Positions 4,337 through 47,840 of a stretch of 64,000 nucleotides of DNA are shown one piece after another. The notes beneath the pieces are model-generated. The model worked only from the letters and a program-made list of their open reading frames with translations. It had not been told where the DNA came from and made no database searches. Every line of letters begins with the position of its first letter. The stretch's first letter is position 1. The stretch lies in NCBI RefSeq assembly GCF_036507355.1, contig NZ_AP027877.1. One strand, given 5' to 3'. Source of the DNA: Escherichia coli. Its GTDB lineage: Bacteria; Pseudomonadota; Gammaproteobacteria; Enterobacterales; Enterobacteriaceae. Made by a program: the position numbers and the translations under genes.

Positions 4337-5236
4337 TTAACGCAATAATGGACAATCTGGTGGTAATCGACAACGCAACGCCGCCGGAAGTATTTCAATA
4401 TGGAAGTTTTGCCCACTCAACGGTTCGCCATCAAGATTAAAAGTGATTTCGTGTGGGGCTTGTATATCAAACCACGACGAAGCGCCTTCGATAATATTCG
4501 GGTTATCTTCGTCAGATTTTAAGGTTGATACGAGAGCCGGAAGAATTTCATCGCCGGTAAAAATGCGCAGTTGCAGCAAGCCATCGTTAATTAACGCGTT
4601 CGGGCACAATTGTTGACCGCCACCGGCCTGACGCCCGTTACCAATACCAATGACCAGGGCGTCACCTTGCCAGTGAAAGTTTTCACCGCGGATTTCACAA
4701 CGGTCCGGTTGCAGAGTATCCATGCGCATTAAGCCATGAATGATGTAAGAGACGCCACCCAGCGCGGCTTTTAATTTTTCCGGCGTTTCTGTGGTAATAC
4801 GCGTCCCAAATCCGCCTGTCGCCATATTAATAAAACAGGTTTGTTTGTTGACCTGCGCCATATCTATCGCAATGGCGTTACCGGCAATTGCCAGTTTCAG
4901 CGCCTTATCCAGTGCCTCAGGAATCCCTACACTGGTGGCAAAATCATTGGCGGTTCCTAATGGCAAAATTCCCAGCGCGGGTATGTCATCCCCCTCACAC
5001 TGAATCAACGCCGTAGAAACTTCATTAATGGTGCCATCGCCACCACCGGCAATCACCGTTGCGACGCCCAACTTCCGGGCCTCCTCTACATATCGTGCGG
5101 CATCGCCTTTCTCCCAGGTGACCCGCACATGGATCGTCATTCCTTCCTCACGCAACAGCATAATTGCTTCGCGCAATGGTAAATTGTCAGTACTTTTGCC
5201 ATTAAGAATCAGTAAGCTGGCGGGAAATTCTGCCAT
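4337..5236 (-). CDS. yegS: lipid kinase YegS (DAGK-family)
   Basis: 299-aa [19 protein letters not shown]... with GGDGT motif typical of diacylglycerol-kinase fold. Confidence 0.9.
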
Positions 5237-6117: not shown

Positions 6118-6204
6118 AAAAAATAAGCCCGTGTAAGGGAGATTACACAGGCTAAGGAGGTGGTTCCTGGTACAGCTAGCATTTTATGGGTTATGTTTTT
6201 CAGC
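6118..6204 (-). ncRNA. cyaR: CyaR (RyeE) Hfq-dependent small RNA
   Basis: Reverse complement of 6118-6204 reads GCUGAAAAACAUAACCCAUAAAAUGCUAGC...CACGGGCUUAUUUUUU, matching the CyaR sequence as I recall it, with terminal hairpin and U-tail. Confidence 0.85.
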
Positions 6205-6288
6205 GAAACGGATGATAACCTTAATAAATGCAGCTGTATGTGATCGGTTTCTAAGAATTTTCCATCCGGGAAAAATAATCGAAATTAA

Positions 6289-18600: not shown

Positions 18601-18803
18601 ATGACATCCGGGCTGGCACCTGGGTAGAGCGTGACCACCTGAATGGTCGGATAGTCCACTTCCGGCAGCGCCGAAACGGGCAGGGCGCGATAACCGATAA
18701 TCCCGGCGAGTAAGATCGCCACCATCAGCAGCGTGGTGGCCACAGGACGCATAATAAACAGGCGCGACGGGCCGCCTGTGCTGCTCGGAGGTAACACCTG
18801 CAT
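15681..18803 (-). CDS. mdtB: RND multidrug efflux transporter subunit MdtB
   Basis: 1040-aa RND permease ORF directly upstream of mdtC. Confidence 0.9.
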
Positions 18804-20050
18804 CAGGAGCGTGCTCCTTTTTTCGCGTATTCGCGGCTGGTGGCTTTCTCTTCCGGAGTGGTGGCGCTCTGGGCTTCCACCACTTCCACTTTCGCCCCTT
18901 CGGTCAGGCGATCAATGCCGTCTGTCACCACGCGATCGCCCGCAGAAATACCTGCGCGGATCACCACTTTCTGACTGTCCTGAATGCCCGGCGTCACCAG
19001 ATGTTTGCTGACCTTGTTTTCGCTATTCAGCACCCAGACAAAATGGCCTTCATTGCCCATTTGCAGGGCGGCGGTGGGGATCACTACGGCGTTTTGTTCG
19101 GTGTCGACTAACATGCGCGCGTTAACAAACTGATTGGGAAACAGCGCATCATCCTGATTATTAAAGCGTGCTTTCACTTTAATCGTACCGGTAGTGGCAT
19201 CGATTTGGTTATCGAGACTTAACAGCGTGCCTTCACTTAATTTCTTCGAGTTGGTGCGATCCCAGGCTTCTACCACCAGCGGTTTCCCGGCTTTTTGCGC
19301 CTGCATAACGGTAGTGATATCGCTTTCCGGCAGGGTAAAGACTAAATCGATAGGATGCGTCTGGGTGATCACCACAATTCCGGTGGTATCACCACTGGAG
19401 ATTTGGTTACCGACATCAACCTGCTTGAGACCAACGCGACCATCGACTGGTGCGGTGATGCGGCTCCAGTCGAGTTGCAGCTGTGCGCTGGCGACGCTTG
19501 CTTCATCAGCCTTAATGGTGCCTTCGGTTTCACTGACCAGCGCTTGTTGGGCATCCAGTTCCTGACGAGATACGAGATTGGTTTTTACCAGTTGTTGATA
19601 ACGCGCCAGGTCACGGCGGGCGTTGGCAAGCGTGGCTTTATCTTTTGCCAGTTGGCCCTGGGCTTGTGCTAATGCAACTTTGAACTGGCTGGGGTCAATT
19701 TCTGCCAGTAAATCGCCTGCTTTGACCTGCTGGCCTTCCTGGAAATGTAACGCCATCAGTTGACCGTCCACGCGGCTACGCACCGTAACAGTATTAGCAG
19801 CGGTAATAGTGCCAAGCCCGGTGAGGTAACGCGGAACTGCCTGTTCTACGGCGGTCGCCGCCTGAACCGGGGCTAATGGGCCGGAACGCATACCACGGCG
19901 ACCACCCGCTGGCGATTGCTGCGCTTGTTTCGTCGCCCCTGGGGCTGCACTCTGGGAGTCATTGCGGCCTTGCCAGAACCAGAATGCGGCGATGGCGGCG
20001 ATAACCACCACGATTACGATTACCCAACGGGATTTATAACTGCCTTTCAT
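18803..20050 (-). CDS. mdtA: RND efflux membrane fusion protein MdtA
   Basis: Membrane-fusion-protein ORF; start set at ATG ([12 protein letters not shown]...) with upstream RBS, giving 415 aa; the longer six-frame ORF extension is unsupported. Confidence 0.85.
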
Positions 20051-20103
20051 CGTTAAGAGTTTCTCTTCCTGAAACGTTTCGCGGAATGATACTAGTGTAG
20101 CCA

Positions 20104-20121
20104 GCCAATAAGGGAGAAAAA
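20104..20121 (-). promoter_or_regulatory. BaeR box upstream of mdtA
   Basis: Minus-strand sequence TTTTTCTCCCTTATTGGC closely matches the BaeR-binding consensus TTTTTCTCCATDATTGGC, about 55 bp upstream of mdtA start. Confidence 0.6.
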
Positions 20122-20289
20122 TGGAGGAATTATGAAACACTATCGGGAATCGTCTGAATGGCGGGCACATTTGCGAGCACGCATCCAGTAATAACACAGG
20201 AAACTATTTTATCTACGCGTTAGCGATAGACTGCTTGCATGGCGAAAGGAGGTAAGCCGACGATTTCAGCGGGACGCTGAAACGGGAAA

Positions 20290-20440
20290 GCCCCTCCCGA
20301 GGAAGGGGCCATAAATAAGGAAAGGGTCATGATGAAGATACTCATCATCGTGGCGCTCTTAGTGATTAGCTACCCAGCATACTAAGACTACCAGGGCGGG
20401 GGAAACCCCGCTCTACCCTCACTCCTGAAAGTATGCCTTC
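20290..20440 (-). ncRNA. sib: Sib-family antisense sRNA (antitoxin) overlapping ibs copy 1; boundaries approximate
   Basis: By family knowledge Sib RNAs are about 140 nt and fully antisense to ibs; minus-strand hairpin GGCCCCTTCCTCGGGAGGGGC+TTTCCC at 20291-20320 is a candidate terminator. Confidence 0.45.
20329..20385 (+). CDS. ibs: Ibs-family type I toxin peptide (MMKILIIVALLVISYPAY)
   Basis: 18-aa hydrophobic peptide ORF with MMK start and RBS aagg, inside Sib/Ibs repeat unit. Confidence 0.8.
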   Translation: MMKILIIVALLVISYPAY

Positions 20441-20636
20441 ACGTTCAGAATGTCAATCCGCAGGCTTTGCAGTCTGCGATCCTGCCAGCAAATATTCTTT
20501 GCGAGACGTTACGCAATAATCACAGAGGAAACTATTTTGTTCACGCGTTAGCGATAGACTGAATTCAGGGCGAAAGGAGGTAAGCCGACGATTTCAGCGG
20601 GACGCTGAAACGGGAAAGCCCCTCCCGAGGAAGGGG

Positions 20637-20648
20637 CCTTAAATAAGG
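20637..20648 (+). repeat. attL core: 12-bp direct repeat CCTTAAATAAGG flanking the island
   Basis: Identical 12-mer at 20637-20648 and 30686-30697; left copy ends the sib half-unit, right copy directly precedes the ibs RBS. Confidence 0.7.
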
Positions 20649-20721
20649 TAAGTTGCACATTTAAAATCTCTTTAATTATCAATAAACTACAATGTATAGG
20701 TCATTATTAGTCAAAATAAAA

Positions 20722-21621
20722 TCATTTGTTGATTTCAATTTTGTCCCATTCTCTCCCTCGGCTATCCCTATACCGCGCCGCCATTGAATCTGATTTATGT
20801 CCGAGAAGACGTTGAGCAAACTTATCGCCAATCTGATTCCGGTATAGCCTCGCCGACAGGCTACGCAGTTCATGGAATGTTGGTGGGTCTCCATCAAATG
20901 AGAGTCCAGATGCATTTCTCGCCTTTGTAAAATACTTCGATACTGTTTTCGGGGAAAGCGGTTCGTGATGCGTTGAGGCGATTATAGTTTCACTGCCGCT
21001 GGCCTCCCTGCATTTCTGTAGTGTATCAGCCAATGAGATATTGAGCGCGTCAATCGTTAGCATCAGCGGAATGGCGAGCTTAGCCCCTGTTTTACCCTGT
21101 TCAATGTGAAGATGGTTGTCGTTTATGTCTGACCATTTCATTCTGCACAAATCGCCGACTCTCTGCCCTGTAACGACAGCCGAATCCATCGCCAGTCTTA
21201 GCCAGATTGGGAGAGGTTCGGCTGCATGGTAAATCGCGACATACTCATTAGCTGTCAGCCTTGAGCGCCTTACTTCTGACTTTGCTGTGCGGGTTGCTGT
21301 TACCGGATTCGTTTCCACATGCCCCTCGGCTATTGCCTCACGAAAAACGTCAACAAGGGTTGACCTGATTAATTTTGCGGAAGCCGCTTTACCTTCTGCT
21401 ACGTAGGTGTTTAGCATTGCTGCCACCTCTTTCGTTGATATGTCAGCGAGCGGTTTGTCCGGCAATTTTCTTCGGATTGCCCTGATTTTGCTGGCGTAGT
21501 CGAGTAGAGTTTTCGTCCTGATCCCCCTCTCGCTGAGGATTGTTTCATATCGGTCAAGCCACGCATGAAGAGTGATTACGTCAGCGCCTTTAATCCTGTC
21601 TATCAGTGAGGTAGCCTGAGT
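20722..21621 (-). pseudogene. int: Tyrosine recombinase (phage integrase), N-terminally truncated
   Basis: Catalytic-domain motifs present (…HELRSLSARLY…LLGHKSDSMAARYRD…); reading frame continues upstream of the annotated start to 21621 (…SLIDRIKGADVITLHAWLDRYETILSERGIRTKTLLDYASKIRAIRRKLPDKPL) and is cut by an IS3-family fragment. Confidence 0.75.
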
Positions 21622-22120
21622 TTAACGGACACTCCTTCCTGAAATAGAATGGCATCAGAAGGAGCTAATAATGAGCAGAAAAACCCAACGTTACTCTAAA
21701 GAGTTCAAAGCCGAAGCTGTCAGAACGGTTCTTGAAAATCAACTTTCGATCAGTGAAGGCGCTTCCCGATTATCTCTTCCTGAAGGCACTTTAGGACAAT
21801 GGGTTACCGCCGCCAGAAAAGGGCTCGGTACTCCTGGTTCCCGCACGGTGGCTGAACTGGAATCTGAAATTCTGCAACTGCGTAAGGCGTTAAATGAAGC
21901 TCGCCTTGAGCGAGATATATTAAAAAAAGCAACGTATTTTGCACAGGAGTCGCTGAAAAATACGCGTTAATCGAACAATGGCGACAACAATTTCCCATTG
22001 AAGCGATGTGTCAGGTATTTGGTGTATCCAGGAGCGGTTATTACAACTGGGTACAGCATGAACCCTCAGACAGAAAACAAAGTGATGAGCGGCTAAAACT
22101 GGAGATTAAGGTGGCACATA
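21610..22120 (+). mobile_element. IS3-family element, 5' fragment only (orfA plus first about 38 codons of orfB)
   Basis: orfA 21671-21970 plus orfB N-terminus MCQVFGVSRSGYYNWVQ... in -1 frame, homology lost after about 22118; boundaries approximate. Confidence 0.6.
21671..21970 (+). CDS. IS3-family transposase OrfA (HTH)
   Basis: 99-aa ORF MSRKTQRYSKEFKAEAVRTVLE...ERDILKKATYFAQE, typical IS3 OrfA with leucine zipper and A-run slippery site near 3' end. Confidence 0.8.
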   Translation: MSRKTQRYSKEFKAEAVRTVLENQLSISEGASRLSLPEGTLGQWVTAARKGLGTPGSRTVAELESEILQLRKALNEARLERDILKKATYFAQESLKNTR

Positions 22121-22149
22121 CGGTAACAAGCCGATACATGCCACACGCA

Positions 22150-22756
22150 TTACTCACCCTCTTTGATGCGAATGCCAGCGGCGCGTGGCACATTAACTTC
22201 CACGATGCGCACTGTTGGTTTGTACATCTCAATCGCTGTCAGCCAGTCAGCTCCTGTCATGCGCTTTTCCGCATCGCCATTAGTCCACTGAACCGGTACA
22301 CCAATAGCCTTCATCGCGATTTCTATTTCCCCGGCAATGGCGCTTTTTCCGCAACCAGTAAAACCAGAAACAACGACAAGAACTTCACCTTTGGCTGGTT
22401 TTATTTCCCGTGCTTCCAGTTCTGCAATGCGCTTACTTCCATCCGCGATTACTCCCTCGTAATATTCACGCTGCTCGTTGAGTTTTGATTTTGCTGCTTC
22501 AAGCTCAACTCTCAGCTTCCCTACCGTTAGCGCAATATCCTCGTTCTCCTGGTCACGGGATTTGATGTATTGCTGGTTTCTTTCCCGTTCATCCAGAAGC
22601 GCCAGCACGGTTGCCGGATTAGCCTTGGCAACAAAATCACGGACTGGCTTACAATCAATCTCAGCAATGGGTTGATACGATGTGTATCCATGCTGTCTTG
22701 TATAACTACCGTGACGAATAACGAAAAAATCACCATTTATTTTTTTAGCCTGCCAC
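22150..22756 (-). pseudogene. Phage-derived protein fragment with P-loop-like motif (GFTGCGKS); 5' end interrupted by IS1
   Basis: Reading frame runs into IS1 terminal bases at 22757; annotated start codon lies inside IS1. Confidence 0.5.
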
Positions 22757-22771
22757 GGTAATGACTCCAAC

Positions 22772-23275
22772 TTATTGATAGTGTTTTATGTTCAGATAAT
22801 GCCCGATGACTTTGTCATGCAGCTCCACCGATTTTGAGAACGACAGCGACTTCCGTCCCAGCCGTGCCAGGTGCTGCCTCAGATTCAGGTTATGCCGCTC
22901 AATTCGCTGCGTATATCGCTTGCTGATTACGTGCAGCTTTCCCTTCAGGCGGGATTCATACAGCGGCCAGCCATCCGTCATCCATATCACCACGTCAAAG
23001 GGTGACAGCAGGCTCATAAGACGCCCCAGCGTCGCCATCGTGCGTTCACCGAATACGTGCGCAACAACCGTCTTCCGGAGCCTGTCATACGCGTAAAACA
23101 GCCAGCGCTGGCGCGATTTAGCCCCGACATAGCCCCACTGTTCGTCCATTTCCGCGCAGACGATGACGTCACTGCCCGGCTGTATGCGCGAGGTTACCGA
23201 CTGCGGCCTGAGTTTTTTAAGTGACGTAAAATCGTGTTGAGGCCAACGCCCATAATGCGGGCTGTTGCCCGGCAT
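22772..23275 (-). CDS. insB: IS1 InsB
   Basis: 167-aa InsB ORF overlapping insA (frameshift fusion partner). Confidence 0.95.
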
Positions 23276-23469
23276 CCAACGCCATTCATGGCCATATCAA
23301 TGATTTTCTGGTGCGTACCGGGTTGAGAAGCGGTGTAAGTGAACTGCAGTTGCCATGTTTTACGGCAGTGAGAGCAGAGATAGCGCTGATGTCCGGCGGT
23401 GCTTTTGCCGTTACGCACCACCCCGTCAGTAGCTGAACAGGAGGGACAGCTGATAGAAACAGAAGCCAC
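23194..23469 (-). CDS. insA: IS1 InsA
   Basis: 91-aa [43 protein letters not shown]... Confidence 0.95.
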
Positions 23470-23548
23470 TGGAGCACCTCAAAAACACCATCATACACTA
23501 AATCAGTAAGTTGGCAGCATCACCGCCTGCCACGGTAATGACTCCAAC

Positions 23549-24052
23549 TTATTGATAGTGTTTTATGTTCAGATAATGCCCGATGACTTTGTCATGCAGC
23601 TCCACCGATTTTGAGAACGACAGCGACTTCCGTCCCAGCCGTGCCAGGTGCTGCCTCAGATTCAGGTTATGCCGCTCAATTCGCTGCGTATATCGCTTGC
23701 TGATTACGTGCAGCTTTCCCTTCAGGCGGGATTCATACAGCGGCCAGCCATCCGTCATCCATATCACCACGTCAAAGGGTGACAGCAGGCTCATAAGACG
23801 CCCCAGCGTCGCCATCGTGCGTTCACCGAATACGTGCGCAACAACCGTCTTCCGGAGCCTGTCATACGCGTAAAACAGCCAGCGCTGGCGCGATTTAGCC
23901 CCGACATAGCCCCACTGTTCGTCCATTTCCGCGCAGACGATGACGTCACTGCCCGGCTGTATGCGCGAGGTTACCGACTGCGGCCTGAGTTTTTTAAGTG
24001 ACGTAAAATCGTGTTGAGGCCAACGCCCATAATGCGGGCTGTTGCCCGGCAT
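23549..24052 (-). CDS. insB: IS1 InsB (copy 2)
   Basis: Identical to copy 1 InsB. Confidence 0.95.
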
Positions 24053-24246
24053 CCAACGCCATTCATGGCCATATCAATGATTTTCTGGTGCGTACCGGGT
24101 TGAGAAGCGGTGTAAGTGAACTGCAGTTGCCATGTTTTACGGCAGTGAGAGCAGAGATAGCGCTGATGTCCGGCGGTGCTTTTGCCGTTACGCACCACCC
24201 CGTCAGTAGCTGAACAGGAGGGACAGCTGATAGAAACAGAAGCCAC
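23971..24246 (-). CDS. insA: IS1 InsA (copy 2)
   Basis: Identical to copy 1 InsA. Confidence 0.95.
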
Positions 24247-24296
24247 TGGAGCACCTCAAAAACACCATCATACACTAAATCAGTAAGTTGGCAGCA

Positions 24297-25112
24297 TCAC
24301 CCTTCCTTGATTCTTTTTTCTTCTGCTATTCTGGCTTGCTCTTTTGCTTCAGCCTCGCGCCGGATTCGTTCAGCCTCCTCCTGTGCTTTTCTGCGTTCTG
24401 CTTCAATTGCTGCCTGCTTTTCTCTTTCAGCTCGTTCTGCTGCCTCTTTTGCTTCGCGCTGTGCTCTCTGCTCGGCTTCAATGCGTTCACGCTCTGCACG
24501 TTCCGCTGCGGCCTTAGCTTCTGCTTCTCGCCTTGCTGCTGCTTCAATTTCGGCTTTTGCCTTTGCTTCGGCTTCAGCTCTGGCTTTCTCTTCAGCTTCT
24601 CTTTTTAAGCGTTCTTCATGCTCTCGCTTTTCCTGCTCCGCTTTGAGTCTTGCCTCTTCTCTTTGGCGGTCAAATTCGCGATCCATCAAAATCGCTATTT
24701 CATGGTCAGACTCAATTTGCTTTGCGAGAGCTTCAGCTGCTGCCTTAGCTTCTTCTTCGGCTTTAATCCGCGCCTGTTCTTCCTCATAATCAGTAAGAGG
24801 CTGGCGCGCCTTGGCTTTCAGTTCATCAAGGCGATCGCGCACTGTCTTGCGGTTGGCATCAATTAGCTTTGGAATTTCCTTCAGTTCAGCAACAAGGTCT
24901 TTGCCAAGACCATCGAGATATGTTTTCGTCTGCGCAACTTTATACGCCAGAGAAGCGATCTCCTTTCTGCCCTTTGCCGTTGTGATATCAGGCACAAAGG
25001 ACATAACTTCACGTTCAACCTTTTGAAGGATTTCTTCAATCTGGTCGGCAGACTGAAATACAGTCATTGCATTTGCTTTTTCAATAACAACTAAATCTGT
25101 TACTTCACTCAT
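24297..25112 (-). CDS. Phage-associated coiled-coil protein with long K/E/A/R-rich repeat region; 3' end abuts IS1, stop codon created at junction
   Basis: ATG with strong RBS ggagga at 25112; low-complexity EAKAKAE/RREAEAK repeats; frame terminates using IS1 terminal bases. Confidence 0.55.
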   Translation of the reverse strand: MSEVTDLVVIEKANAMTVFQSADQIEEILQKVEREVMSFVPDITTAKGRKEIASLAYKVAQTKTYLDGLGKDLVAELKEIPKLIDANRKTVRDRLDELKAKARQPLTDYEEEQARIKAEEEAKAAAEALAKQIESDHEIAILMDREFDRQREEARLKAEQEKREHEERLKREAEEKARAEAEAKAKAEIEAAARREAEAKAAAERAERERIEAEQRAQREAKEAAERAEREKQAAIEAERRKAQEEAERIRREAEAKEQARIAEEKRIKEG

Positions 25113-25246
25113 ATATCCTCCATCAAAAAAATTGCCCTCACATCGGAGGGCAAAGAAGATTTCCAATAATCAGAACAAGTCGGCTCCTGTTTAGTTACGA
25201 GCGACATTGCTCCGTGTATTCACTCGTTGGAATGAATACACAGTGC

Positions 25247-25450
25247 TTATTCGCGAGCTTTGAGCATTGCGTCTGCAAACTTATATGCAGCGCTTGCTGC
25301 ATAATTAACAGCTCCATCAGAATCATTATCGATAATCGATGGATTGCTAATCATTGCTTGCATAGCCTTAGCAGCGAAGTAATCACGTAATGTCGCATCA
25401 CTTGCCATTTCTGGGCGTTTGATATCTGCTTCATAAAACTCGCACATCAT
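25247..25450 (-). CDS. Small hypothetical phage protein (67 aa)
   Basis: ORF with ATGATG start overlapping stop of an upstream fragment; no family assigned. Confidence 0.4.
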   Translation of the reverse strand: MMCEFYEADIKRPEMASDATLRDYFAAKAMQAMISNPSIIDNDSDGAVNYAASAAYKFADAMLKARE

Positions 25451-25617
25451 TCACCTCCCAGAGCCTTGCTGATTGCTGCAAGACCTTTATTAACAGCTCC
25501 ATACCATTCTGGATATGTTGTCGTTGTTCTATTTTTGGATTGCTTAAGTAATAACTGAAGTGCTTCGAGAAGGTCAGGTGCTGCCGCTATTAGATTGGCA
25601 TCTTCAATACATTGAAC
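25451..25617 (-). pseudogene. C-terminal fragment of a phage gene truncated by IS3-family element
   Basis: In-frame coding sequence ...DANLIAAAPDLLEALQLLLKQSKNRTTTTYPEWYGAVNKGLAAISKALGGE with stop overlapping next ATG; upstream continuation replaced by IS end at 25618. Confidence 0.4.
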
Positions 25618-25674
25618 TGAATCGCCACGGGTTTAACAGACACCTCAGAGTCATTTAAGATGGCTTAAAGAGAG

Positions 25675-25959
25675 GTGCCCATGAGCGGTAAGCGTTATCC
25701 CGAAGAGTTTAAAATTGAAGCAGTCAAACAGGTTGTTGATCGCGGTTATTCTGTTGCCAGCGTTGCAACACGTCTCGATATCACCACCCACAGCCTTTAC
25801 GCCTGGATAAAGAAGTACGGTCCGGATTCTTCCGCTAATAAAGAACAGTCAGATGCTCAGGCCGAGATCCGCCGTCTCCAGAAAGAGCTGAAGCGGGTTA
25901 CCGACGAACGGGACATATTAAAAAAAGCCGCGGCGTACTTCGCAAAGCTGTCCGACTGA
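25675..25959 (+). CDS. IS3-family transposase OrfA
   Basis: 94-aa MPMSGKRYPEEFKIEAVKQVV... HTH plus leucine zipper. Confidence 0.85.
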   Translation: MPMSGKRYPEEFKIEAVKQVVDRGYSVASVATRLDITTHSLYAWIKKYGPDSSANKEQSDAQAEIRRLQKELKRVTDERDILKKAAAYFAKLSD

Positions 25960-26015
25960 GGTACGCCTTTATCCGTGACAACACCTGTTGCTGGCCTGTT
26001 CGCCTGCTCTGTCGG

Positions 26016-26828
26016 GTGCTGGATGTTCATCCCAGTGGTTTTTACGCCTGGCTTCAGCAGCCGCATTCACAACGCCATCAGGCAGACCTGAGGCTGACAG
26101 GGCAGATTAAACAGTTCTGGCTGGAATCGGGATGCGTCTATGGTTATCGCAAAATCCATCTGGATCTGCGGGACAGCGGGCAACAGTGCGGAGTGAACAG
26201 AGTCTGGCGACTGATGAAACGTGTCGGGATAAAGGCTCAGGTCGGATACCGGAGCCCGCGGGCACGTAAAGGCGAGGCCAGTATCGTGTCGCCCAACAGG
26301 CTCCAGCGACAGTTCAATCCGGATGCTCCGGATAAGCGTTGGGTAACGGACATAACCTACATCAGGACCCACGAAGGCTGGCTGTATCTTGCCGTGGTTG
26401 TTGATCTGTTCTCACGCAAAATTATCGGCTGGTCCATGCAATCCCGGATGACAAAGGACATTGTCCTGAACGCACTGCTGATGGCTGTATGGCGCCGTAA
26501 TCCCCAAAAACAGGTGCTGGTTCATTCGGATCAGGGCAGTCAGTACACAAGCCATGAGTGGCAGTCGTTCCTGAAATCACACGGCCTGGATGGCAGCATG
26601 AGCCGTCGCGGTAACTGCCATGATAATGCGGTTGCAGAAAGCTTTTTCCAGTTGTTGAAACGCGAACGGATAAAGAAAAAGATCTACGGAACGCGGGAAG
26701 AAGCCCGCAGCGATATTTTTGATTACATCGAAATGTTTTATAACAGTAAGCGTCGGCATGGTTCCAGCGATCAGATGTCACCGACAGAATATGAAAACCA
26801 GTATTATCAACGGCTCGGAAGTGTCTAG
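26016..26828 (+). CDS. IS3-family transposase OrfB (DDE integrase domain); produced as OrfAB via -1 frameshift
   Basis: 270-aa ORF in -1 frame relative to orfA with DDE-type motifs (…WVTDITYI…HSDQGSQYTS…NAVAESFF…); frame continues back to slippery site. Confidence 0.85.
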   Translation: MLDVHPSGFYAWLQQPHSQRHQADLRLTGQIKQFWLESGCVYGYRKIHLDLRDSGQQCGVNRVWRLMKRVGIKAQVGYRSPRARKGEASIVSPNRLQRQFNPDAPDKRWVTDITYIRTHEGWLYLAVVVDLFSRKIIGWSMQSRMTKDIVLNALLMAVWRRNPQKQVLVHSDQGSQYTSHEWQSFLKSHGLDGSMSRRGNCHDNAVAESFFQLLKRERIKKKIYGTREEARSDIFDYIEMFYNSKRRHGSSDQMSPTEYENQYYQRLGSV

Positions 26829-26847
26829 ATTATCCGTGGCGATTCAA

Positions 26848-27236
26848 TATTGGCCTGATAATTGAAATTGATGACTCAGTATTCAATAATGCATCTAAAT
26901 TCGTAGGTGGTGTTGTTATTCTTGATAATCTAGTTTGTGAATGTAAGACCTATCTCAAAAGAATCGCTTTAAGTCGTATTAGCGGAAGTACTTTTGGCGC
27001 ATTCAACGGAACAGGTCTTACAATTAACGGAGCAAGAGAGATTTACATGGTAAACTCTGGTGGTCATTATAGTAATGACAATGCTATTCACTTAATCAAT
27101 GTGCGTAATAGTGTTTTTTCTGGCAGTAGTTTTACTAACGCTGTGAACTCATGTCTTCTTTTAGATGATTGTCACGACTTAACATTTACCAGTGTGAATG
27201 CTGGTTTTGTAGAGGTATACGAATAATGGCCAACAT
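26848..27236 (+). pseudogene. 3' fragment of a tailspike/beta-helix-like phage gene, truncated by the IS3-family element
   Basis: In-frame translation ...GGVVILDNLVCECKTYLKRIALSRISGSTFGAFNGTGLTINGAREIYMVNSGGHYSNDNAIHLINVRNSVFSGSSFTNAVNSCLLLDDCHDLTFTSVNAGFVEVYE* starts at IS boundary with no start codon. Confidence 0.5.
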
Positions 27237-27534
27237 AACCCCAAAGTATGGGTTCAACATATCAACAGGGTGCACAGGTATTATTTTAGTAGGTTGCACC
27301 AGTGCAGGTAATAGTATTGCAAACATAACTGGTGGCGGTTATGTAGATGGTAGCACTAGAGTATTAGCATGTAATGGCATGCCTGATTCAGTTATTGTTC
27401 TCCGTGGGTCTACTGCGGAGCGCCCTACAGCACCAGTCAGTGGGCAGATGTATTATGATACAACGCTAGGTCTTCCAATATGGTATAACGGCACAGCTTC
27501 ATCATGGCAGCGAGCTGATGGAACAAATACTTGA
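27229..27534 (+). CDS. Small tail-fibre-like protein (102 aa), function unknown
   Basis: ATG overlapping stop of preceding fragment (TAATGG); Gly/Thr/Ser-rich; ends near gtr module. Confidence 0.4.
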   Translation, partial: ANITPKYGFNISTGCTGIILVGCTSAGNSIANITGGGYVDGSTRVLACNGMPDSVIVLRGSTAERPTAPVSGQMYYDTTLGLPIWYNGTASSWQRADGTNT

Positions 27535-27579
27535 TTAATTTATGGCGCATCAATATAAAGTATCGATGCGCCATAATAA

Positions 27580-29067
27580 TCACTGACAAATGTTTTTGTC
27601 AAAATCAACTACAATAATATCATCATATGAGTATAAGTTATATTCATATGCTCTTTTAATCTTTGCGGTTGAGCAAAAGGTTTTTTCATTTAACACACTT
27701 GCAATGTTTGTATTCCCAGGGTGTTTAAAGTAAACTCCAACTCTATTCATATAAGGGAATGGCCAATCCCAATTATAGAAATACTCTGGGAAAAATCTAG
27801 ATATTAACGGGTAATTATTTCGTGCGTTTACAAAAACATCATTGTCTTTCTTTTTACCATTAAAAATAAGTATCTGATTTGTTTTTCCGCTTAACTCGAA
27901 AGCATCATTTTTAATCTGATGAAACAGAACTGTGGTTATGTTTTTTTCTTCTGTCATTGCATTTGTGTATGAACATAAAAAACCAAAAACATAAATCAGA
28001 GGAATTACAAGTATATATGTTATTGAATTTTTTGTTTCTCGCGAGAAAAGATAAACAATCATGAATAAGAACAACATCGTAGCAGAAAAACCGATCATCA
28101 CTCTTGGGGCGTCGATGTGATGCTGAAGTGGTAATAGAGTAGCAAAAGACAATATCAAAGCTGTTACTGGCGATGTTATTGTAATTAAAAAATTAATAAT
28201 ACCAGTAATACTTTTATTAGGTATTAATTTCTTTAGCGCGATAAATGTCGTCATTGCAATGAAAAATAAAAATATTACTATAAACGCAACTCGTCCTGAT
28301 TCCCCAAAAATACCACTAGATATTGAATGAAGATAAAATTTTAAGTTTTCATATATAACTGAAAAAATGCCTTCAGTTTTAATTGATGGGTGATCCGGGT
28401 CCCCAACAACAGTTAAAAATAAAGGAATAACCACCAAAAAATATAATGCAACACCTATAACTAATGATACCGTCTTTTCTATGAGGTAAGTTAATAGATG
28501 TCTGTTACTATCTGAGTTAAAGTACATGTAAACATATTTACACAGAATAATAACCAGCATGAAATTTAATGATGCTTGGTATATAGACAATATAAATAAT
28601 GTTAACAGGGCGGCAAAAGAAATATTTAAAATTGTCTTTTTGAAATTAAATATTACAACTGAGAATGACAATGCAATACTCATGAACATCGGTAAAACAT
28701 CAAAGCGATACATTGCATTTTCAATTAAAAATGGGCTTGATAAAATACCAAGAGGAACCAACAGTCCAATAAATTTATTATCTGTCGATATAAACATCCT
28801 GCTAAAAAAATACAGGCAAACAGATATCAAAAATACTGATAATATTGCAGGAAATGGGAATAAGTCCGTTATGTGCATGTTGAAATTCAATGCAATCATC
28901 AACATTTCAGCCAAAGGTCTACCATCCCTAGCCCATCCAGTATACCCCCATATAGCTCTTCCCTGATCATCTACATAATGAATATTTGCCATGATGATGG
29001 GGGTGAAATATATAAAAACAGATATCAAGAACCAATGGAAAGGTGTTTTGTTTTTATTTGCAATCAT
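27580..29067 (-). CDS. GtrC-like type-specific O-antigen glucosyltransferase (polytopic membrane protein)
   Basis: 495-aa ORF, multiple TM helices, strongly AT-rich, immediately downstream of gtrB with overlapping stop/start. Confidence 0.7.
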
Positions 29068-29983
29068 TTTTCTGATCCTTTAAAACATATCTTGGGCGCT
29101 GCTTAACTTCAATATAAATACGTCCTATGTACTCTCCAAGTACACCAATACCAATTAGTTGTACGCCGCCAAGAAACAATATTGATACAAGAATTGAAGG
29201 GTATCCAGGTACATTATTACCAAAAATCAATTTATCAATTATCATCCATGAACCGTATGTAAATGATATACATGCAATAAATAACCCAATATAGGTCCAC
29301 ATGCGAAGCGGGAAAGTAGAAAAGCTAGTGATCCCTTCCAGCGCCAAGTTCCATAGCTTCCATCCATTGAACTTTGTGCTTCCTGCAACGCGTTCTGCTC
29401 GCGCATATTCTACGACATCGGTTCGACCACCAACCCAGCTCAGCACACCCTTCATAAACAGGTTTCGTTCTGGCATGAGCTTAATGTTTTCTACTACTTC
29501 GCGAGACATGAGCCGGAAGTCGCCAACATTCTCTTCTATCTGAGGGTTGCTGATTTTGTTATGAAGTTTATAGAACCACTCAGCAGATTTACGCTTCAGC
29601 CTGCTGTCAGTGGAGCGGTCAGAGCGTTTAGCCAGAACCATATCTGCACCGGCCTGCCATTTCTCTATCAAGTGAGGAATAACTTCGATAGGGTCTTGCA
29701 GATCAACGTCAATCGGGATAATTGCCTCCCCGGTAGCATGGTCCAGACCTGCGAACAGGGCGGGTTCTTTGCCGAAGTTACGTGTGAACGACAGCGAAAC
29801 CACAAGCGGGTCGGCAACAGCAAGCTCGTTGATAATTGATTCTGTAGCGTCTTTGCTGCCATCGTTTATGAAGACTATCTCGACTTCATGCTGCTGAAGC
29901 CCTTCAAATTCGCGCACGGTTTTATAAAAAATAGGTATCGTGGCCTCTTCGTTAAAGACCGGAACGACTAAAGAAATTTTCAT
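29054..29983 (-). CDS. gtrB: GtrB bactoprenol glucosyltransferase (GT2 family)
   Basis: 309-aa [16 protein letters not shown]...[10 protein letters not shown]...C-terminal TM helices; matches conserved GtrB. Confidence 0.9.
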
Positions 29984-30342
29984 TTCGCATCCCTAAAGAC
30001 AATGAACTTTGAATAGATGAAACCGCACACCAGGCTGATGGCGGAGAAGGTGACAAGAGTTATCATCGGGGGAAGTGCGCATCTATCAGCAGCCCATCCA
30101 ACAGTAGCACTGAGTGTTCCCATGAACCCGACATATAACATGTAGCGCATCGTTGTAGTTGATGCTTTGAATGTGAATTTTGCATTCGCGAAGAAGCTAA
30201 AACTCACAGCCACAACGAAACCTGCGAAGTTTGCCAGAGCCTGATTGGTATGCGCGGCATAGATACATACACCAAAAACCACCCAGTGTATAAGTGTGTT
30301 CAGCACACCAATCGAGGTGTACCTTGCAAATATATTTAACAT
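29980..30342 (-). CDS. gtrA: GtrA flippase (small 4-TM protein)
   Basis: 120-aa [31 protein letters not shown]...; overlaps gtrB start. Confidence 0.9.
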
Positions 30343-30685
30343 TTATTTAATCAATGAGTTCTGAAAGGTATGAAGTCTATCATCCAAGTCTCAATCGATC
30401 GATACTTGCGGTAGTTGATGAGGAAAACTCTGGTACACAAAGCTTTGCACTGGACTGCAAGGTGTTGTGCTTCTCTGGAGTGCGACATGTTTGATAACAA
30501 AAAATTAGCGCAAGAAGACAAAAAATCACCTTGCGCTAATGCTCTGTTACAGGTCACTAATACCATCTAAGTGGTTGATTCATAGTGACTGGATATGTTG
30601 TGTTTTGTCGCATTTTGCAGTCTATTATTTAACCGCGAATTCGTGTAATGCGATGATTTTTAAGTGATTAATATTATTTTGTCAT

Positions 30686-30697
30686 CCTTAAATAAGG
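30686..30697 (+). repeat. attR core: 12-bp direct repeat CCTTAAATAAGG
   Basis: Identical to 20637-20648; followed by aaagggtcATGATG of ibs. Confidence 0.7.
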
Positions 30698-30705
30698 AAA
30701 GGGTC

Positions 30706-30762
30706 ATGATGAAGTGGATCATCATCGTGGTGCTCTTAGTCATAAGCTTCCCGGCTTACTAA
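30706..30762 (+). CDS. ibs: Ibs-family type I toxin peptide (MMKWIIIVVLLVISFPAY), right half of the unit split by the island
   Basis: 18-aa hydrophobic ORF; upstream repeat-unit sequence replaced by island DNA. Confidence 0.75.
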   Translation: MMKWIIIVVLLVISFPAY

Positions 30763-30994
30763 GACTACCAGGGCGGGGGAAACCCCGCTCTACCCTCACT
30801 CCTGAAAGTATGCCTTCACGATAAGATTGTCAATCTGCAGGCTTTGCAGTCTGCGATCCTGCCAGCAAATATTCTTTGCGAGTCGTTACGCAATAATCAC
30901 AGAGGGAACTATTTTGTTCACGCGTTAGCGATAGACTGCATTCAGGGCGAAAGGAGGTAAGCCGACGATTTCAGCGGGACGCTGAAACGGGGAA

Positions 30995-31145
30995 CCCTCT
31001 CCCGGAGAAGAGGGCTTTTAATAAGGAAAGGGTTATGATGAAGCACGTCATCATACTGGTGATACTCTTAGTGATTAGCTTCCAGGCTTACTAAGAACAC
31101 CAGGGGGAGGGGGAAACCTCTCCCTAACCCTCACTCCTGAAATTA
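30995..31145 (-). ncRNA. sib: Sib-family antisense sRNA overlapping ibs copy 3; boundaries approximate
   Basis: Same unit architecture as 20290-20440, with hairpin gggaaccctctcccggagaagagggc upstream of the ibs RBS. Confidence 0.4.
31035..31094 (+). CDS. ibs: Ibs-family type I toxin peptide (MMKHVIILVILLVISFQAY)
   Basis: 19-aa hydrophobic ORF within complete repeat unit 3. Confidence 0.8.
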   Translation: MMKHVIILVILLVISFQAY

Positions 31146-31314
31146 TGTCACTCCGCCCTTAGTGTCAATCGACGGCTCTCCGTTCTTGCGAGGCGAATAG
31201 CAAAATTTTCTGCGCCGCCGGGACTAATTCTGAAAGTTTCTTCGTTTGCTCTTATTTCATTATTGCAGTCGGTATGATACCGGACCTTAATAATTCTCTA
31301 AGAAAGGATTTCTT

Positions 31315-31974
31315 ATGAGCGAACAAATCACGTTTGCCACCAGCGATTTTGCCAGTAACCCGGAACCACGTTGCCCCTGCATTCTGCTGCTGGATGTATC
31401 TGGCTCGATGAGCGGCAGACCTATTAATGAACTTAACGCCGGATTGGTTACCTTTCGTGATGAACTGCTTGCTGATCCGCTGGCTTTAAAAAGAGTGGAA
31501 CTCGGCATTGTGACGTTCGGCCCGGTGCATGTGGAACAACCCTTTACCAGCGCCGCTAACTTTTTCCCGCCCATCCTGTTTGCCCAGGGCGATACACCAA
31601 TGGGGGCCGCCATTACCAAAGCCCTGGATATGGTTGAAGAGAGGAAACGTGAGTACCGCGCAAATGGTATTTCGTATTATCGCCCGTGGATTTTCCTGAT
31701 CACCGATGGCGCTCCAACCGATGAGTGGCAGGCTGCCGCCAACAAAGTGTTTCAGGGGGAAGAAGATAAGAAGTTTGCCTTCTTTTCCATCGGTGTTCAG
31801 GGGGCGGATATGAAGACGCTGGCCCAAATCAGCGTCCGTCAGCCTTTGTCTCTGCAGGGATTACAATTCCGTGAACTGTTTAGCTGGTTATCCAGTTCGC
31901 TGCGTTCGGTTTCCCGCTCCACGCCGGGAACGGAAGTTGTGCTGGAAGCGCCAAAAGGCTGGACGTCAGTGTGA
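31315..31974 (+). CDS. yegL: von Willebrand factor A (vWA) domain protein YegL
   Basis: 219-aa ORF with MIDAS motif (DVSGSMSG); overlaps yegK start. Confidence 0.85.
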
Positions 31975-32732
31975 GCTGGCGTCTGGTTTATGCATCCGCT
32001 GTTGGAACGTCGCACATTAGCGCTGATTTACCTTGTCAGGATGCCTGCCAGATGCAGGTTGCCTGGCTAAATGACCAGCAGCCATTACTGGTGATGTTCC
32101 TTGCTGATGGCGCAGGTAGCGTTTCGCAGGGAGGAGAAGGCGCGAAGCTCGCCGTCAATGAAGCGATGGCGTTTATGGTGCAAAAAGTACAGGACGGTGA
32201 ATTGGGGCTTAATGATGTCCTCGCCACAAATATGGTACTGACCATTCGTCAACGACTTTTTGCCGAGGCAGAAGCCAAAGCATTAGCAGTTCGCGATTTT
32301 GCCTGCACGTTTCTGGGATTGATTTCATCGGCTAACGGCACATTGATTATGCAAATTGGCGACGGCGGTGTAGTGGTGGATTTTGGTCACGGTCTGCAAT
32401 TACCGCTTACGCCGATGGTGGGTGAATATGCCAATATGACGCATTTCATTACCGATGAAGATGCCGTTTCCAGACTGGAAACTTTCACCAGCACTGAGCG
32501 TGTGCATAAAGTTGCAGCATTTACGGATGGTATCCAGCGACTGGCGTTAAATATGTTGGATAATTCTCCGCATGTGCCTTTCTTTACCCCTTTTTTCAAT
32601 GGACTGGCGGCAGCAACGCAGGAACAGCTCGATTTATTACCTGAATTGTTAAAGCAGTTTTTGTCCAGCCCGGCGGTAAACGAGCGTACCGATGATGATA
32701 AAACGTTGGCACTGGCGCTGTGGTTACCATGA
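31971..32732 (+). CDS. yegK: PP2C-family Ser/Thr phosphatase YegK
   Basis: 253-aa ORF with PP2C-like motifs (…LADGAGS…DGG…); overlaps yegI start. Confidence 0.8.
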
Positions 32733-34669
32733 AACCCACTTTATATACTGCTACTGGTGAGTGCGTTACGCCAGGCCGTGAACTGGGCAAAGGTGGCGAA
32801 GGCGCGGTTTATGATATCAATGAGTTTGTCGATAGCGTCGCCAAGATTTATCACACGCCGCCACCCGCCTTAAAACAGGACAAACTTGCCTTTATGGCTG
32901 CGACAGCTGACGCGCAGTTGTTGAATTATGTCGCCTGGCCGCAGGCAACGCTTCACGGTGGACGAGACGGAAAAGTTATCGGTTTTATGATGCCAAAAGT
33001 TTCTGGTAAAGAACCGATTCATATGATCTATAGCCCGGCACATCGTCGCCAGAGTTACCCTCATTGTGCGTGGGATTTTCTACTCTATGTTGCGCGCAAT
33101 ATTGCTTCATCTTTTGCTACGGTTCACGAGCACGGGCACGTCGTGGGGGACGTAAACCAGAACAGCTTTATGGTAGGTCGCGACAGCAAAGTGGTGTTGA
33201 TCGATAGTGACTCTTTTCAGATTAACGCCAATGGCACACTGCATTTATGCGAAGTCGGCGTGTCGCATTTTACGCCGCCAGAGCTACAAACCTTGCCATC
33301 ATTTGTCGGTTTTGAACGTACCGCGAATCACGATAATTTTGGCCTTGCGTTGCTGATTTTTCACGTCTTGTTTGGTGGGCGGCATCCTTATTCTGGTGTG
33401 CCGCTTATCTCTGATGCGGGTAATGCGCTGGAGACGGATATTGCCCATTTCCGTTATGCCTACGCGTCAGATAATCAGCGACGTGGTTTAAAACCGCCGC
33501 CACGATCTATTCCGCTGTCGATGTTACCGGGCGATGTTGAAGCCATGTTTCAGCAGGCATTCACGGAAAGTGGCGTGGCAACGGGGCGTCCGACGGCTAA
33601 AGCGTGGGTAGCGGCACTGGACTCTCTACGCCAACAGTTAAAGAAATGTACCGTTTCAGCAATGCATGTTTACCCCGCTCATTTGACTGACTGCCCGTGG
33701 TGTACGCTGGATAATCAAGGCGTTATCTATTTTATTGATCTCGGCGAAGAGGTCATTACCACCGGCGGTGATTTTGTGCTGGCGAAAGTCTGGGCGATGG
33801 TGATGGCGTCAGTAGCGCCGCCAGCATTGCAACTGCCATTACCCGATCATTTCCAACCGACTGGCAGGCCGCTTCCTTTAGGCCTGTTACGGCGCGAATA
33901 CATCATTCTGATTGAGATCGCACTGTCAGCGTTATCGCTGTTGCTTTGCGGCCTTCAGGCAGAACCGAGTTATATTATTTTGGTTCCTGTGCTGGCGGCT
34001 ATCTGGATTATTGGCAGTCTGACAAGCAAAGCGTACAAAGCAGAAGTTCAGCAACGCCGTGAGGCATTTAATCGCGCGAAAATGGACTATGACCATTTAG
34101 TCAGCCAGAGCCAACAGTTGGGCGGGCTGGAAGGTTTTATCGCCAAACGGACGATGCTCGAAAAAATGAAGGACGAAATTCTCGGGTTACCGGAAGAAGA
34201 AAAACGTGCTCTGGCAGCACTTCACGACACTGCAAGGGAACGGCAGAAGCAGAAGTTTCTGGAGGGATTTTTTATTGATGTTGCCTCTATTCCCGGCGTT
34301 GGCCCTGCGCGTAAAGCGGCGTTACGATCTTTTGGTATTGAAACAGCCGCGGATGTTACCCGTCGTGGGGTTAAGCAAGTTAAAGGGTTTGGTGATCATC
34401 TGACCCAGGCGGTTATCGACTGGAAAGCGAGCTGTGAACGCCGTTTTGTGTTCAGGCCGAACGAAGCGGTAACGCCTGCAGACAGACAAGCGGTAATGAC
34501 TAAAATGGCCGCCAAACGACATCGGCTGGAATCGACGTTGACTGTCGGCGCGACAGAGTTGCAGCGATTCCGCCTTCATGCTCCAGCACGGACCATGCCG
34601 TTGATGGAACCGTTACGTCAGGCGGCAGAAAAACTGGCTCAGGCGCAGGCTGATTTAAGCCGTTGCTGA
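32729..34669 (+). CDS. yegI: Eukaryotic-like Ser/Thr protein kinase YegI
   Basis: Kinase-like N-terminal domain (GKGGEGAVY..., HGDVNQNSF..., DSDSF) plus long C-terminal extension; ATG at 32729 (GTG alternative at 32720). Confidence 0.8.
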   Translation: MKPTLYTATGECVTPGRELGKGGEGAVYDINEFVDSVAKIYHTPPPALKQDKLAFMAATADAQLLNYVAWPQATLHGGRDGKVIGFMMPKVSGKEPIHMIYSPAHRRQSYPHCAWDFLLYVARNIASSFATVHEHGHVVGDVNQNSFMVGRDSKVVLIDSDSFQINANGTLHLCEVGVSHFTPPELQTLPSFVGFERTANHDNFGLALLIFHVLFGGRHPYSGVPLISDAGNALETDIAHFRYAYASDNQRRGLKPPPRSIPLSMLPGDVEAMFQQAFTESGVATGRPTAKAWVAALDSLRQQLKKCTVSAMHVYPAHLTDCPWCTLDNQGVIYFIDLGEEVITTGGDFVLAKVWAMVMASVAPPALQLPLPDHFQPTGRPLPLGLLRREYIILIEIALSALSLLLCGLQAEPSYIILVPVLAAIWIIGSLTSKAYKAEVQQRREAFNRAKMDYDHLVSQSQQLGGLEGFIAKRTMLEKMKDEILGLPEEEKRALAALHDTARERQKQKFLEGFFIDVASIPGVGPARKAALRSFGIETAADVTRRGVKQVKGFGDHLTQAVIDWKASCERRFVFRPNEAVTPADRQAVMTKMAAKRHRLESTLTVGATELQRFRLHAPARTMPLMEPLRQAAEKLAQAQADLSRC

Positions 34670-47372: not shown

Positions 47373-47840
47373 AGTAAGTACAAAACCTATTCGTTGTATG
47401 ACAAATGTCACAATTCGATCATGGATAAATCGGGGCAAAAATGCAATGTTGCAGCACTATTTATCTCATATTATTTGAGGACAATAACCTCACATTATCC
47501 CTGAATTAAAAGTGGTAATAATAAAACATTATTTAAGAAATATCGCATGTGGAGACGCAATATTAAATATTGTCAACCTAAAGAAACTCCTAAAAACCAT
47601 ATTGAATGACACTTAATATAATTCTTAAAAATAGCCAATTGCCGAATTGTTACCTTGCCTGCTATTCCGTTAGCTGTAACACTTCCTCCTGCATTATTGG
47701 AGAGCCAATATTCAATTACCATAATGTCACCTTATATTCGGAAGTTAATTTCCGCAATAACCCTTTCTCATCAACGACTGTATGTTGAGAGGGTTTTAAA
47801 AATTAAGCTAAATCAGTGTATTGGTAGCTAAAAAGCCAGG

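Follow-up and report, generated by a model that had tools for sequence, protein, structure and literature searches.

A recurrent prophage attachment site within a sib/ibs toxin-antitoxin unit of Escherichia coli, occupied by the IS-degraded remnant of an HK022-type prophage

A prophage remnant of about 10 kb splits one unit of the sib/ibs type I toxin-antitoxin repeat between mdtA and yegL in a 64,000-nucleotide stretch of Escherichia coli DNA (hereafter the window; RefSeq assembly GCF_036507355.1, contig NZ_AP027877.1). A first-pass annotation, made from the letters of the window, had proposed that the middle of three units is interrupted and that the junctions are attachment (att) sites of a site-specific tyrosine integrase; both proposals are borne out, and arms of the type found in phage HK022 lie at the two ends of the block. 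Very probably, a lambdoid phage with the integrase (Int), excisionase (Xis) and phage attachment site (attP) of the HK022 family entered the middle unit by conservative site-specific recombination, and the prophage later decayed through insertion sequences (IS). In this process an attP with HK022 arm sites and core-type sites around the overlap AATAAGG would have crossed with a bacterial site (attB) at nucleotides 101-107 of the Sib antitoxin RNA. Insertions of IS3-family and IS1 elements, together with deletions, would then have cost the prophage its xis, the 5' part of int and almost every other phage gene, the outcome being a fixed 10-kb remnant with an intact gtrABC cassette. The anatomy of the junctions, the homology to HK022, the recurrence of the junctions in other genomes and the empty site can each be demonstrated at the level of sequence; the integration event itself would have been catalyzed by Int.

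The ends of the block are marked by the direct repeat CCTTAAATAAGG, which occurs in the window solely at 20637-20648 and 30686-30697, both on the + strand, where 0.01 occurrences would be expected by chance. There is no third copy in the 64 kb. The first-pass annotation gave these coordinates correctly, and it also placed the 3' end of the integrase gene correctly, 73 bp inside the left junction (the stop codon is at 20722). Its view of the repeat as a 12-bp core needs to be narrowed: the 12 bp are indeed shared by the two junctions of the window, but the functional core is the 7-bp overlap AATAAGG flanked by 7-bp core-type sites for Int. The junctions are given here as bacterial (B, B') and phage (C, C') core-type sites on either side of the overlap (O):

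20635..20655, + strand: attL, B/O/C' GGCCTTA/AATAAGG/TAAGTTG (the same BO in 8 E. coli carriers, then TAAGTT(G/C))
30684..30704, + strand: attR, C/O/B' ATCCTTA/AATAAGG/AAAGGGT (6 E. coli carriers read ATCCTTT/AATAAGG/AAAGGGT)

The C site of the window (30684-30690) thus differs by one base from that of the six carriers (ATCCTTA vs ATCCTTT), and it is for this reason that the direct repeat is 12 bp long in the window; an exact repeat of that length is particular to it. In other carriers the 12-mer accordingly recurs on one side, at attL (CCTTAAATAAGG), but not at attR, which reads CCTTTAATAAGG; the segment always common to the two is AATAAGG. The first-pass annotation had named absence of the 12-mer from other carriers' junctions as a refutation, but its absence at attR does not refute integration. 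A composite transposition bounded by IS elements, with a 12-bp target-site duplication, or a repeat that is there by coincidence, has next to no probability. The island does hold two IS1 and two IS3-family elements, but these are internal, the ends of the block are P and P' arms of HK022 type and not IS ends, and the same junctions flank complete lambdoid prophages that lack these IS elements; coincidence is further opposed by the chance expectation for the 12-mer given above.

That the interrupted sequence is a Sib/Ibs repeat follows from matches to the covariance model and from open reading frames (ORFs) for ibs on the opposite strand. Rfam SIB_RNA (RF00113) matches the - strand at 20314-20456, 30691-30833 and 31020-31168 with 136-150 bits (gathering score 56), and opposite each of the three Sib RNA genes lies a hydrophobic ibs ORF of 18-19 codons. 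The ibs ATG codons at 20329, 30706 and 31035, listed in the first reading of the window, open ORFs that are read directly in the sequence, and Pfam Ibs_toxin matches these ibs genes in a 99.98%-identical contig. In a search for direct repeats, 20309-20608 matches 30686-30985 at 94% and 20170-20324 matches 20498-20652 at 88%; by the first of these pairings, what stands to the left of 20648 and what stands to the right of 30686 together make up a single unit. The locus and its flanks are laid out as follows:

18803..20050, - strand: mdtA, left chromosomal flank (ORF translation with MKGSYKSRW...; annotated mdtA in E. coli carriers and K-12)
20283..20420, - strand: Sib unit 1, complete, ends approximate by analogy with K-12 sibB (Rfam 136.5 bits; folded)
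20307..20327, + strand: unoccupied att-like site of unit 1, GGCCATA/AATAAGG/AAAGGGT (B without CTT at positions 4-6; the sequence is that of K-12 sibB)
20329-20385, + strand: ibs-1
20444..20634, + strand: left half of unit 2, the ibs upstream/5'-untranslated region, with the - strand Sib terminator hairpin at ~20611-20639 (repeat finder, fold)
30691..30797, - strand: body of Sib unit 2, nt 1-107, severed from its terminator (Rfam 140 bits; folds)
30706-30762, + strand: ibs-2, Shine-Dalgarno sequence retained, upstream region lost
30990..31132, - strand: Sib unit 3, sibA type, ends approximate (Rfam 149.5 bits)
31013-31033, + strand: unoccupied att-like site of unit 3, GGCTTTT/AATAAGG/AAAGGGT
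31035-31094, + strand: ibs-3
31316..31975, + strand: yegL, right chromosomal flank (start read at 31316, end approximate, from the 660-nt length of the gene in K-12; so annotated in K-12 and carriers)

Joining 19950-20648 to 30698-31400 rebuilds an empty site as a three-unit locus. This sequence is found as a single alignment in E. coli genomes with three annotated Ibs toxins, at 99.6% in AHM8C212RI and at 97.4% in O157:H7 EDL933; K-12 and others have two units at mdtA-yegL. A 49-mer across the predicted empty junction, which includes the predicted empty-site string, was designed so that one central mismatch abolishes the megablast seed. Of 5,426 complete E. coli genomes about 4,440-4,500 match it, 4,436 of them with an identity of at least 99% (~82%). 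The uninterrupted unit that was predicted from the window therefore exists, both as a three-unit locus in related genomes and as a junction present in most of the species' complete genomes.

The occupied site also recurs. Balanced junction queries of 100+100 bp, run against the same 5,426 genomes, detected attL in 84 and attR in 91 (~1.6%). An earlier figure of 714 carriers, from a 981-bp query of junction plus int, was rejected as inflated; 93% of that query is int, so that any HK022-type int was counted. Eight attL and seven attR sequences, from 12 E. coli carrier genomes, were read base by base, and all 15 lie between mdtA and yegL. Every attL reads GGCCTTA/AATAAGG/TAAGTT(G/C); six of the seven attR read ATCCTTT/AATAAGG/AAAGGGT, and in the seventh the overlap is mutated to AATAAGA. 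The base to the left of the overlap is the bacterial A at attL (8 carriers) and the phage T at attR (6 carriers), whereas to its right attL has T and attR has A. With the flanking bases parental on both sides, the exchange is confined to the 7-bp overlap, in keeping with what is known of this integrase family, and AATAAGG itself is found in every attL, in all attR but one and in the empty attB. The exceptional attR belongs to ECNB21-M121, where the yegL-proximal ibsA unit carries GGCCTTA, elsewhere seen only in occupied units. In E. coli D1 (NZ_CP010134.1) attL lies near 3,437,919-3,438,899 (-) and an attR-like sequence near 4,885,124-4,885,443 (+), ~1.45 Mb apart and on opposite strands, as if a segment of the chromosome had been inverted and one of its ends fell within the prophage.

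Larger prophages occupy the site in some of these genomes. In 2022N21-074 there is an apparently intact lambdoid prophage of 48.5 kb, with int, xis, repressor, O/P, Q, lysis, terminase, head and tail genes; CE0007a has a 51-kb prophage that is interrupted by IS elements. CE0007a, FORC064, Z1323CEC0007, 2022N21-074, Z1323PEC0012 and SLK172 all have an annotated excisionase gene upstream of int; the remnant in the window has no xis. The slot adjacent to attR carries varied cargo: gtr genes in the window and in ECNB21-M121 (gtrA and gtrB in the latter), the retron Eco8 (reverse transcriptase and effector endonuclease) in 2022N21-074, a SMODS nucleotidyltransferase with a SLATT protein in CE0007a, and the type III secretion system effector EspJ in Z1323PEC0012.

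The phage side of the junctions points to HK022. An attP reconstructed by joining 30500-30697 to 20649-20800 is 90% identical to the annotated attP of HK022 (and of mEp235) over all 349 bp, and 76-79% identical to attPs of lambda type; like the HK022 attP, annotated at 243-469 of X51962, it has the organization of a site of ~230 bp with P and P' arms around a core. By sequence, the integrase is a tyrosine recombinase with the catalytic domain of lambda Int, although the gene in the window is truncated. The window fragment is 95% identical to residues 111-357 of HK022 Int (247 amino acids, including HELRSLSARLY...LLGHKSDSMAARY), and the full-length Int of the carrier CE0007a matches HK022 Int at 342 of 357 positions (96%). 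Both the window Int and the CE0007a Int keep PLSPKTVSK and LYRNQIG, positions that reportedly (Dorgai, Yagil and Weisberg, in 1995) separate HK022 from lambda core specificity. They also have in common the substitutions S137A, S234G, Q260K, S266G, K274T, D277E and N302D relative to HK022. The cores compare as follows:

HK022 attP core (X51962): ATCCTTT / AGGTGAA / TAAGTTG
Element attP core (reconstructed): ATCCTT(T/A) / AATAAGG / TAAGTTG
HK022 attB in K-12, between torS and torT: GCACTTT / AGGTGAA / AAAGGTT
sib attB: GGCCTTA / AATAAGG / AAAGGGT

The element and HK022 therefore share an essentially identical Int, the arm regions, the phage sib/tI site, the C and C' core-type sites (ATCCTTT, TAAGTTG) and the architecture of a 7-bp overlap. 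The bacterial core-type sites are similar as well, and in intact carriers of the sib-site prophage xis stands next to int. The overlaps, however, differ at six of seven positions (AATAAGG vs AGGTGAA), and, unlike the torS-torT attB of HK022, that of the element falls within a sib/ibs unit of the mdtA-yegL interval, so that the att specificity is not that of HK022. Integrases of this family require identical overlaps in the two partners (PMC5512741), and since attP and attB must match there, the target of the element is the sib/ibs sequence GGCCTTA/AATAAGG/AAAGGGT and not torS-torT. The swapped overlap would be enough to account for the different target; judged from these comparisons, integrase and attP do not represent a new family, but HK022's own system with its overlap exchanged.

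A different view of the same data is that the sib site is an accidental secondary site for canonical HK022-type phages whose attP has the AGGTGAA overlap. The Int is 95-96% identical to that of HK022, an attP with AATAAGG was not seen directly in the phage and metagenome databases searched, and the occupancy of ~1.6% is lower than the share of genomes with an HK022-type int (at least 80% of the 981-bp query, itself 93% int, is present in 714), all of which would fit such an accident. Yet bases derived from AGGTGAA occur in none of the 15 junctions; instead, every attL and all attR but one (AATAAGA) have AATAAGG beside phage arm DNA. Moreover, by the established rules of the lambda family, a cross between overlaps mismatched at six of seven positions is very inefficient and would leave mixed overlaps, and the same junctions are found in 84-91 genomes whose prophages differ in content. 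A secondary site is for these reasons highly improbable, and a phage lineage with its own AATAAGG attP is preferred.

Not all units of the locus appear to be equally acceptable to such a phage. The prophage is in the first unit from mdtA in CE0007a, FORC064, RM14723, 2022N21-074 and SLK172, and in the second in the window, Z1323CEC0007 and Z1323PEC0012. The overlap and B' are common to all units at mdtA-yegL, but the occupied units all have B = GGCCTTA and the unoccupied units of the same genomes GGCCATA or GGCTTTT. Only GGCCTTA has CTT at B positions 4-6, and CTT is likewise found in C, C' and B' when these are read in the same sense; it corresponds to the conserved portion of the core-site consensus of the lambda family, CAACTTNNT. 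The CTT of the B site thus probably decides which unit is used. At this locus K-12 has only the B variants GGCCATA (sibB) and GGCTTTT (sibA). The other K-12 loci, sibC, sibD and sibE, were considered as targets and rejected, as their overlaps differ, that of sibE by one base. The sequence upstream of ibsE in K-12 sibE is GGCCTTG/TATAAGG/AAAGGGT, and, with its overlap a single base off that of the phage, sibE is a possible secondary site.

The crossover point falls within the antitoxin gene itself. The RefSeq sibB gene of K-12 has its 3' end just past the GC-rich hairpin upstream of the ibs ribosome-binding site, and when the reconstructed 140-nt Sib RNA of unit 2 is folded, the overlap (nt 101-107) is single-stranded and the terminator stem occupies nt 109-134. 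A simple terminator scan flagged neither the Sib terminator nor the phage tI hairpin, and folding was used instead. In SibC the counterpart of the overlap stretch is the target-recognition domain TRD2 (J1/7), followed by the P7 terminator, and the start sites of ibs have been mapped in the same work (Han et al. 2010, PMC2943612). The first-pass annotation had set the core between the hairpin and the ibs Shine-Dalgarno sequence; a more accurate description is nt 101-107 of the Sib antitoxin, just 5' of the terminator, the same bases forming the Shine-Dalgarno region of ibs on the other strand. Integration leaves the Sib terminator and the ibs upstream region on the attL side, and the Sib promoter with nt 1-107, together with the Shine-Dalgarno sequence and ORF of ibs, on the attR side. 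Phage DNA does not regenerate the 3' end of the RNA gene, the P arm being unlike the Sib terminator beyond the 12-bp core. The next terminator-like structure on the Sib strand, a hairpin followed by a run of U, is that of the phage sib/tI site at 30497-30546, 140-190 bp away, and the unit-2 Sib transcript would be expected to become a chimera of ~300 nt running into phage tI. The promoter of ibs-2 has presumably been lost; the orphaned ibs promoter would point antisense into int, and the orphaned Sib terminator would lie just downstream of int. That a natural HK022 lineage was re-targeted by the overlap swap alone to a site selected for its effect on the toxin-antitoxin pair and on int is improbable. 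If it were true, parts of a host toxin-antitoxin system would regulate Int expression or prophage stability, and excision would restore a live toxin-antitoxin unit.

What is left of the phage between the two junctions is listed in order below:

20656..20728, + strand: P' arm of attP, homologue of that in HK022 attP (window 20649-21609 vs HK022 X51962 390-1350, 94.8%)
20722..21609, - strand: HK022-type integrase pseudogene, 5' end cut at 21609 (ORF of 247 amino acids; DNA homology to HK022 stops at 21609)
21671..21970, + strand: IS3-family transposase orfA fragment abutting the truncated int (NCBIfam transpos_IS3, E = 1.3e-12)
22150..22770, - strand: Ea22-like lambdoid early-region remnant, cut by IS1 (PHROG 250, E = 8e-63)
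22757..24301, - strand: two tandem IS1 copies, 22757-23524 and 23534-24301, 9 bp apart (repeat spacing 777; InsA/InsB ORFs; 99.7% to the IS1A of CE0007a)
24297..25450, - strand: two phage ORFs of unknown function, 289 and 67 amino acids (PHROG 1376, E = 1e-82; PHROG 2201, E = 4e-18)
25675..26828, + strand: second IS3-family element, orfA 25675-25959 and orfB 26016-26828 (NCBIfam transpos_IS3, E = 8.5e-101)
27169..27534, + strand: virion structural/tail-fibre fragment (PHROG 20787, virion structural protein)
27580..30342, - strand: intact gtrABC cassette, with gtrA at 29980-30342, gtrB at 29054-29983 and a gtrC-type glucosyltransferase gene at 27580-29067
30497..30546, - strand: homologue of the phage "sib" retroregulation/tI hairpin (aligns to X51962 190-239, "sib transcription processing site"; the fold is a strong hairpin followed by a U-run)
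30550..30683, + strand: P arm of attP (window 30497-30689 vs HK022 190-381, 92.7%)

The names are confusing here, as the phage sib/tI site is unrelated to the bacterial Sib RNA, which lies ~140 bp away on the same strand. The early-region remnant at 22150..22770 has 86-94% DNA identity to the ead/Ea22-like regions of the CE0007a and 2022N21-074 prophages, and E. coli relatives have tail-fibre assembly genes, upstream of gtrC, at the position equivalent to 27169..27534. A 9-bp sequence, GCCTGCCAC, precedes the first IS1 copy and recurs between the copies, but is absent after the second (window 22748-24301), a pattern that suggests duplication of IS1 or an adjacent deletion. Readings of ORFs, PHROG and NCBIfam found no xis, repressor, replication, lysis, head or tail genes left in the ~10-kb block, which is a dead prophage remnant that keeps a lysogenic-conversion cassette. 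The cassette is predicted to be an O-antigen glucosylation operon that encodes a GtrA flippase-like protein, a GtrB bactoprenol glucosyltransferase (GT2) and a GtrC-type serotype-specific transferase; it matches PHROG GtrA-like (E = 2e-69) and GtrC-like (E = 2e-73) families and the Pfam domains GtrA_DPMS_TM, Glycos_transf_2 and Glucos_trans_II. A sequence search found the island in no complete E. coli RefSeq genome. The arrangement yegL-ibs-ibs-gtrABC is present, at 99.8-99.98% to window 26751-33067, in three NCBI drafts (GCA_047852605.1, GCA_905398585.1 and GCA_905398635.1), whose contigs break inside the IS3-family element. The load of IS elements is suggestive of Shigella. The gtrIC locus of Shigella flexneri 1c was considered as an identity for the island and ruled out, as gtrIC is at tRNA-Pro next to yejO (PMC4924310).

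The cargo has a history of its own. Over 27451-30631 the gtr cassette has 99.2% DNA identity to E. coli prophages that carry Mu-type baseplate genes and lie beside ybhB-bioA, and the identity ends 55 bp before attR. Since this identity extends across prophage types and stops so close to the junction, the cargo has moved between prophages by recombination, which indicates that the cassette is exchanged among unrelated prophages with different integrases. The lineage might have acquired the occupied mdtA-yegL locus, or only its gtr end, by homologous recombination from another strain or prophage. At least the cargo did recombine, as the match to the unrelated ybhB-bioA prophages attests, and the sib repeats and core genes on either side provide plenty of homology for it. 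Such a transfer, however, explains how the locus spread and not how it arose, for Int must still have made the junctions once, and the data cannot separate the two histories in this strain. As an account of the window, homologous acquisition is unlikely, though by no means far-fetched, and integration by an HK022-type phage, followed by decay, is retained.

Several considerations weigh against this conclusion and should be set beside it. The Int of the window is truncated and xis is absent from the element, and the occupied locus may have come in by homologous recombination and not through an integration event of its own. Just 15 of ~175 junctions were read base by base. The single-base difference in the window C site may reflect a phage variant or a later conversion. 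The effects described for Sib and ibs expression are all inference. Finally, the first-pass annotation had suggested a search for an intact phage with this attP, and none came to light among INPHARED, IMG/VR and the JGI metagenomes. In INPHARED no free phage or circular attP with the AATAAGG overlap was found, the best match being HK022 at 84%. The exact attP pattern had no match in IMG/VR, where a pattern with a degenerate overlap returned only HK022 and mEp235, and attP was not found in the JGI metagenomes, though the attL control matched 5 contigs. As no attP was observed, the attP presented here is reconstructed.

The element bears comparison with several known systems. The "saf"/secondary-site model of att-specificity evolution, said to come from lambda work by Weisberg, Dorgai, Rutkai and colleagues, has as its first step what is seen here, namely a specificity changed mainly via the overlap with the integrase almost unchanged; in contrast to the laboratory mutants, the element belongs to a natural recurrent lineage, and no intermediate forms were found. 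Small RNA (sRNA) genes are known as prophage targets from ryeB/SdsR in Salmonella and ryeE/CyaR in E. coli (Bobay et al. 2013, PMC3603311). The sib target resembles these sRNA sites, and tRNA and tmRNA sites, in lying in the 3' part of a structured small-RNA gene by its terminator hairpin, with int abutting the junction. It differs in two respects: the phage brings no replacement 3' end (7-12 bp are shared, and the Sib terminator is not regenerated), and what it targets is a single member of a tandem, copy-number-variable type I toxin-antitoxin repeat, not a single-copy gene. Serotype-converting gtrABC prophages of Shigella and E. coli likewise have gtrA-gtrB-gtrC at the attR-proximal end of an IS-degraded prophage, and the K-12 element CPS-53, with yfdGHI, is a serotype-converting remnant of the gtrABC type. 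Degradation by IS elements like that in the window has been described for gtrIC (PMC4924310), but SfII, SfV and SfX (at thrW) and gtrIC (at tRNA-Pro, PMC4924310) have integration sites and integrases unlike those of the window element.

Full-text literature searches found no paper that names sib/ibs or mdtA-yegL as an att site, and such a site is not mentioned in the review of type I antitoxins by Wen and Fozo. Bobay et al. (PMC3603311) count 11 sRNA-flanked hotspots in E. coli; the main text names only ryeB and ryeE and no sib, the hotspots being listed in table S3, which lay outside the search. The gene for CyaR/RyeE is itself in the window, at 6121-6206 (-) (Rfam 100.7 bits), ~14 kb from the sib site; ryeE being cited as an E. 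coli phage target in that study (PMC3603311), the window holds two sRNA loci tied to phage integration. Further away, Rfam recognizes a JUMPstart element at 47814-47852 (+) and an algC-type RNA motif at 62331-62380 (+), which presumably belong to the downstream polysaccharide clusters.

The mechanism proposed is an ordinary one, straight from the textbook; the integrase is among the best studied, and no new mechanism is revealed. HK022 Int is in use as a genome-engineering tool, and a natural orthogonal overlap/attB pair for it may be of practical use. What is added for the family is a natural case in which an integrase has changed its target mainly via the overlap, with the enzyme 95-96% identical, a change so far modelled mostly with laboratory mutants. 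To the E. coli prophage map the locus contributes a recurrent site inside a type I toxin-antitoxin sRNA gene, empty in ~82% of complete genomes and occupied in ~1.6%, whose prophages carry varied adaptive genes in their attR-proximal slot. If the GGCCTTA variant of the B site is required, lysogenization experiments based on K-12, which is without that variant, would miss these phages.

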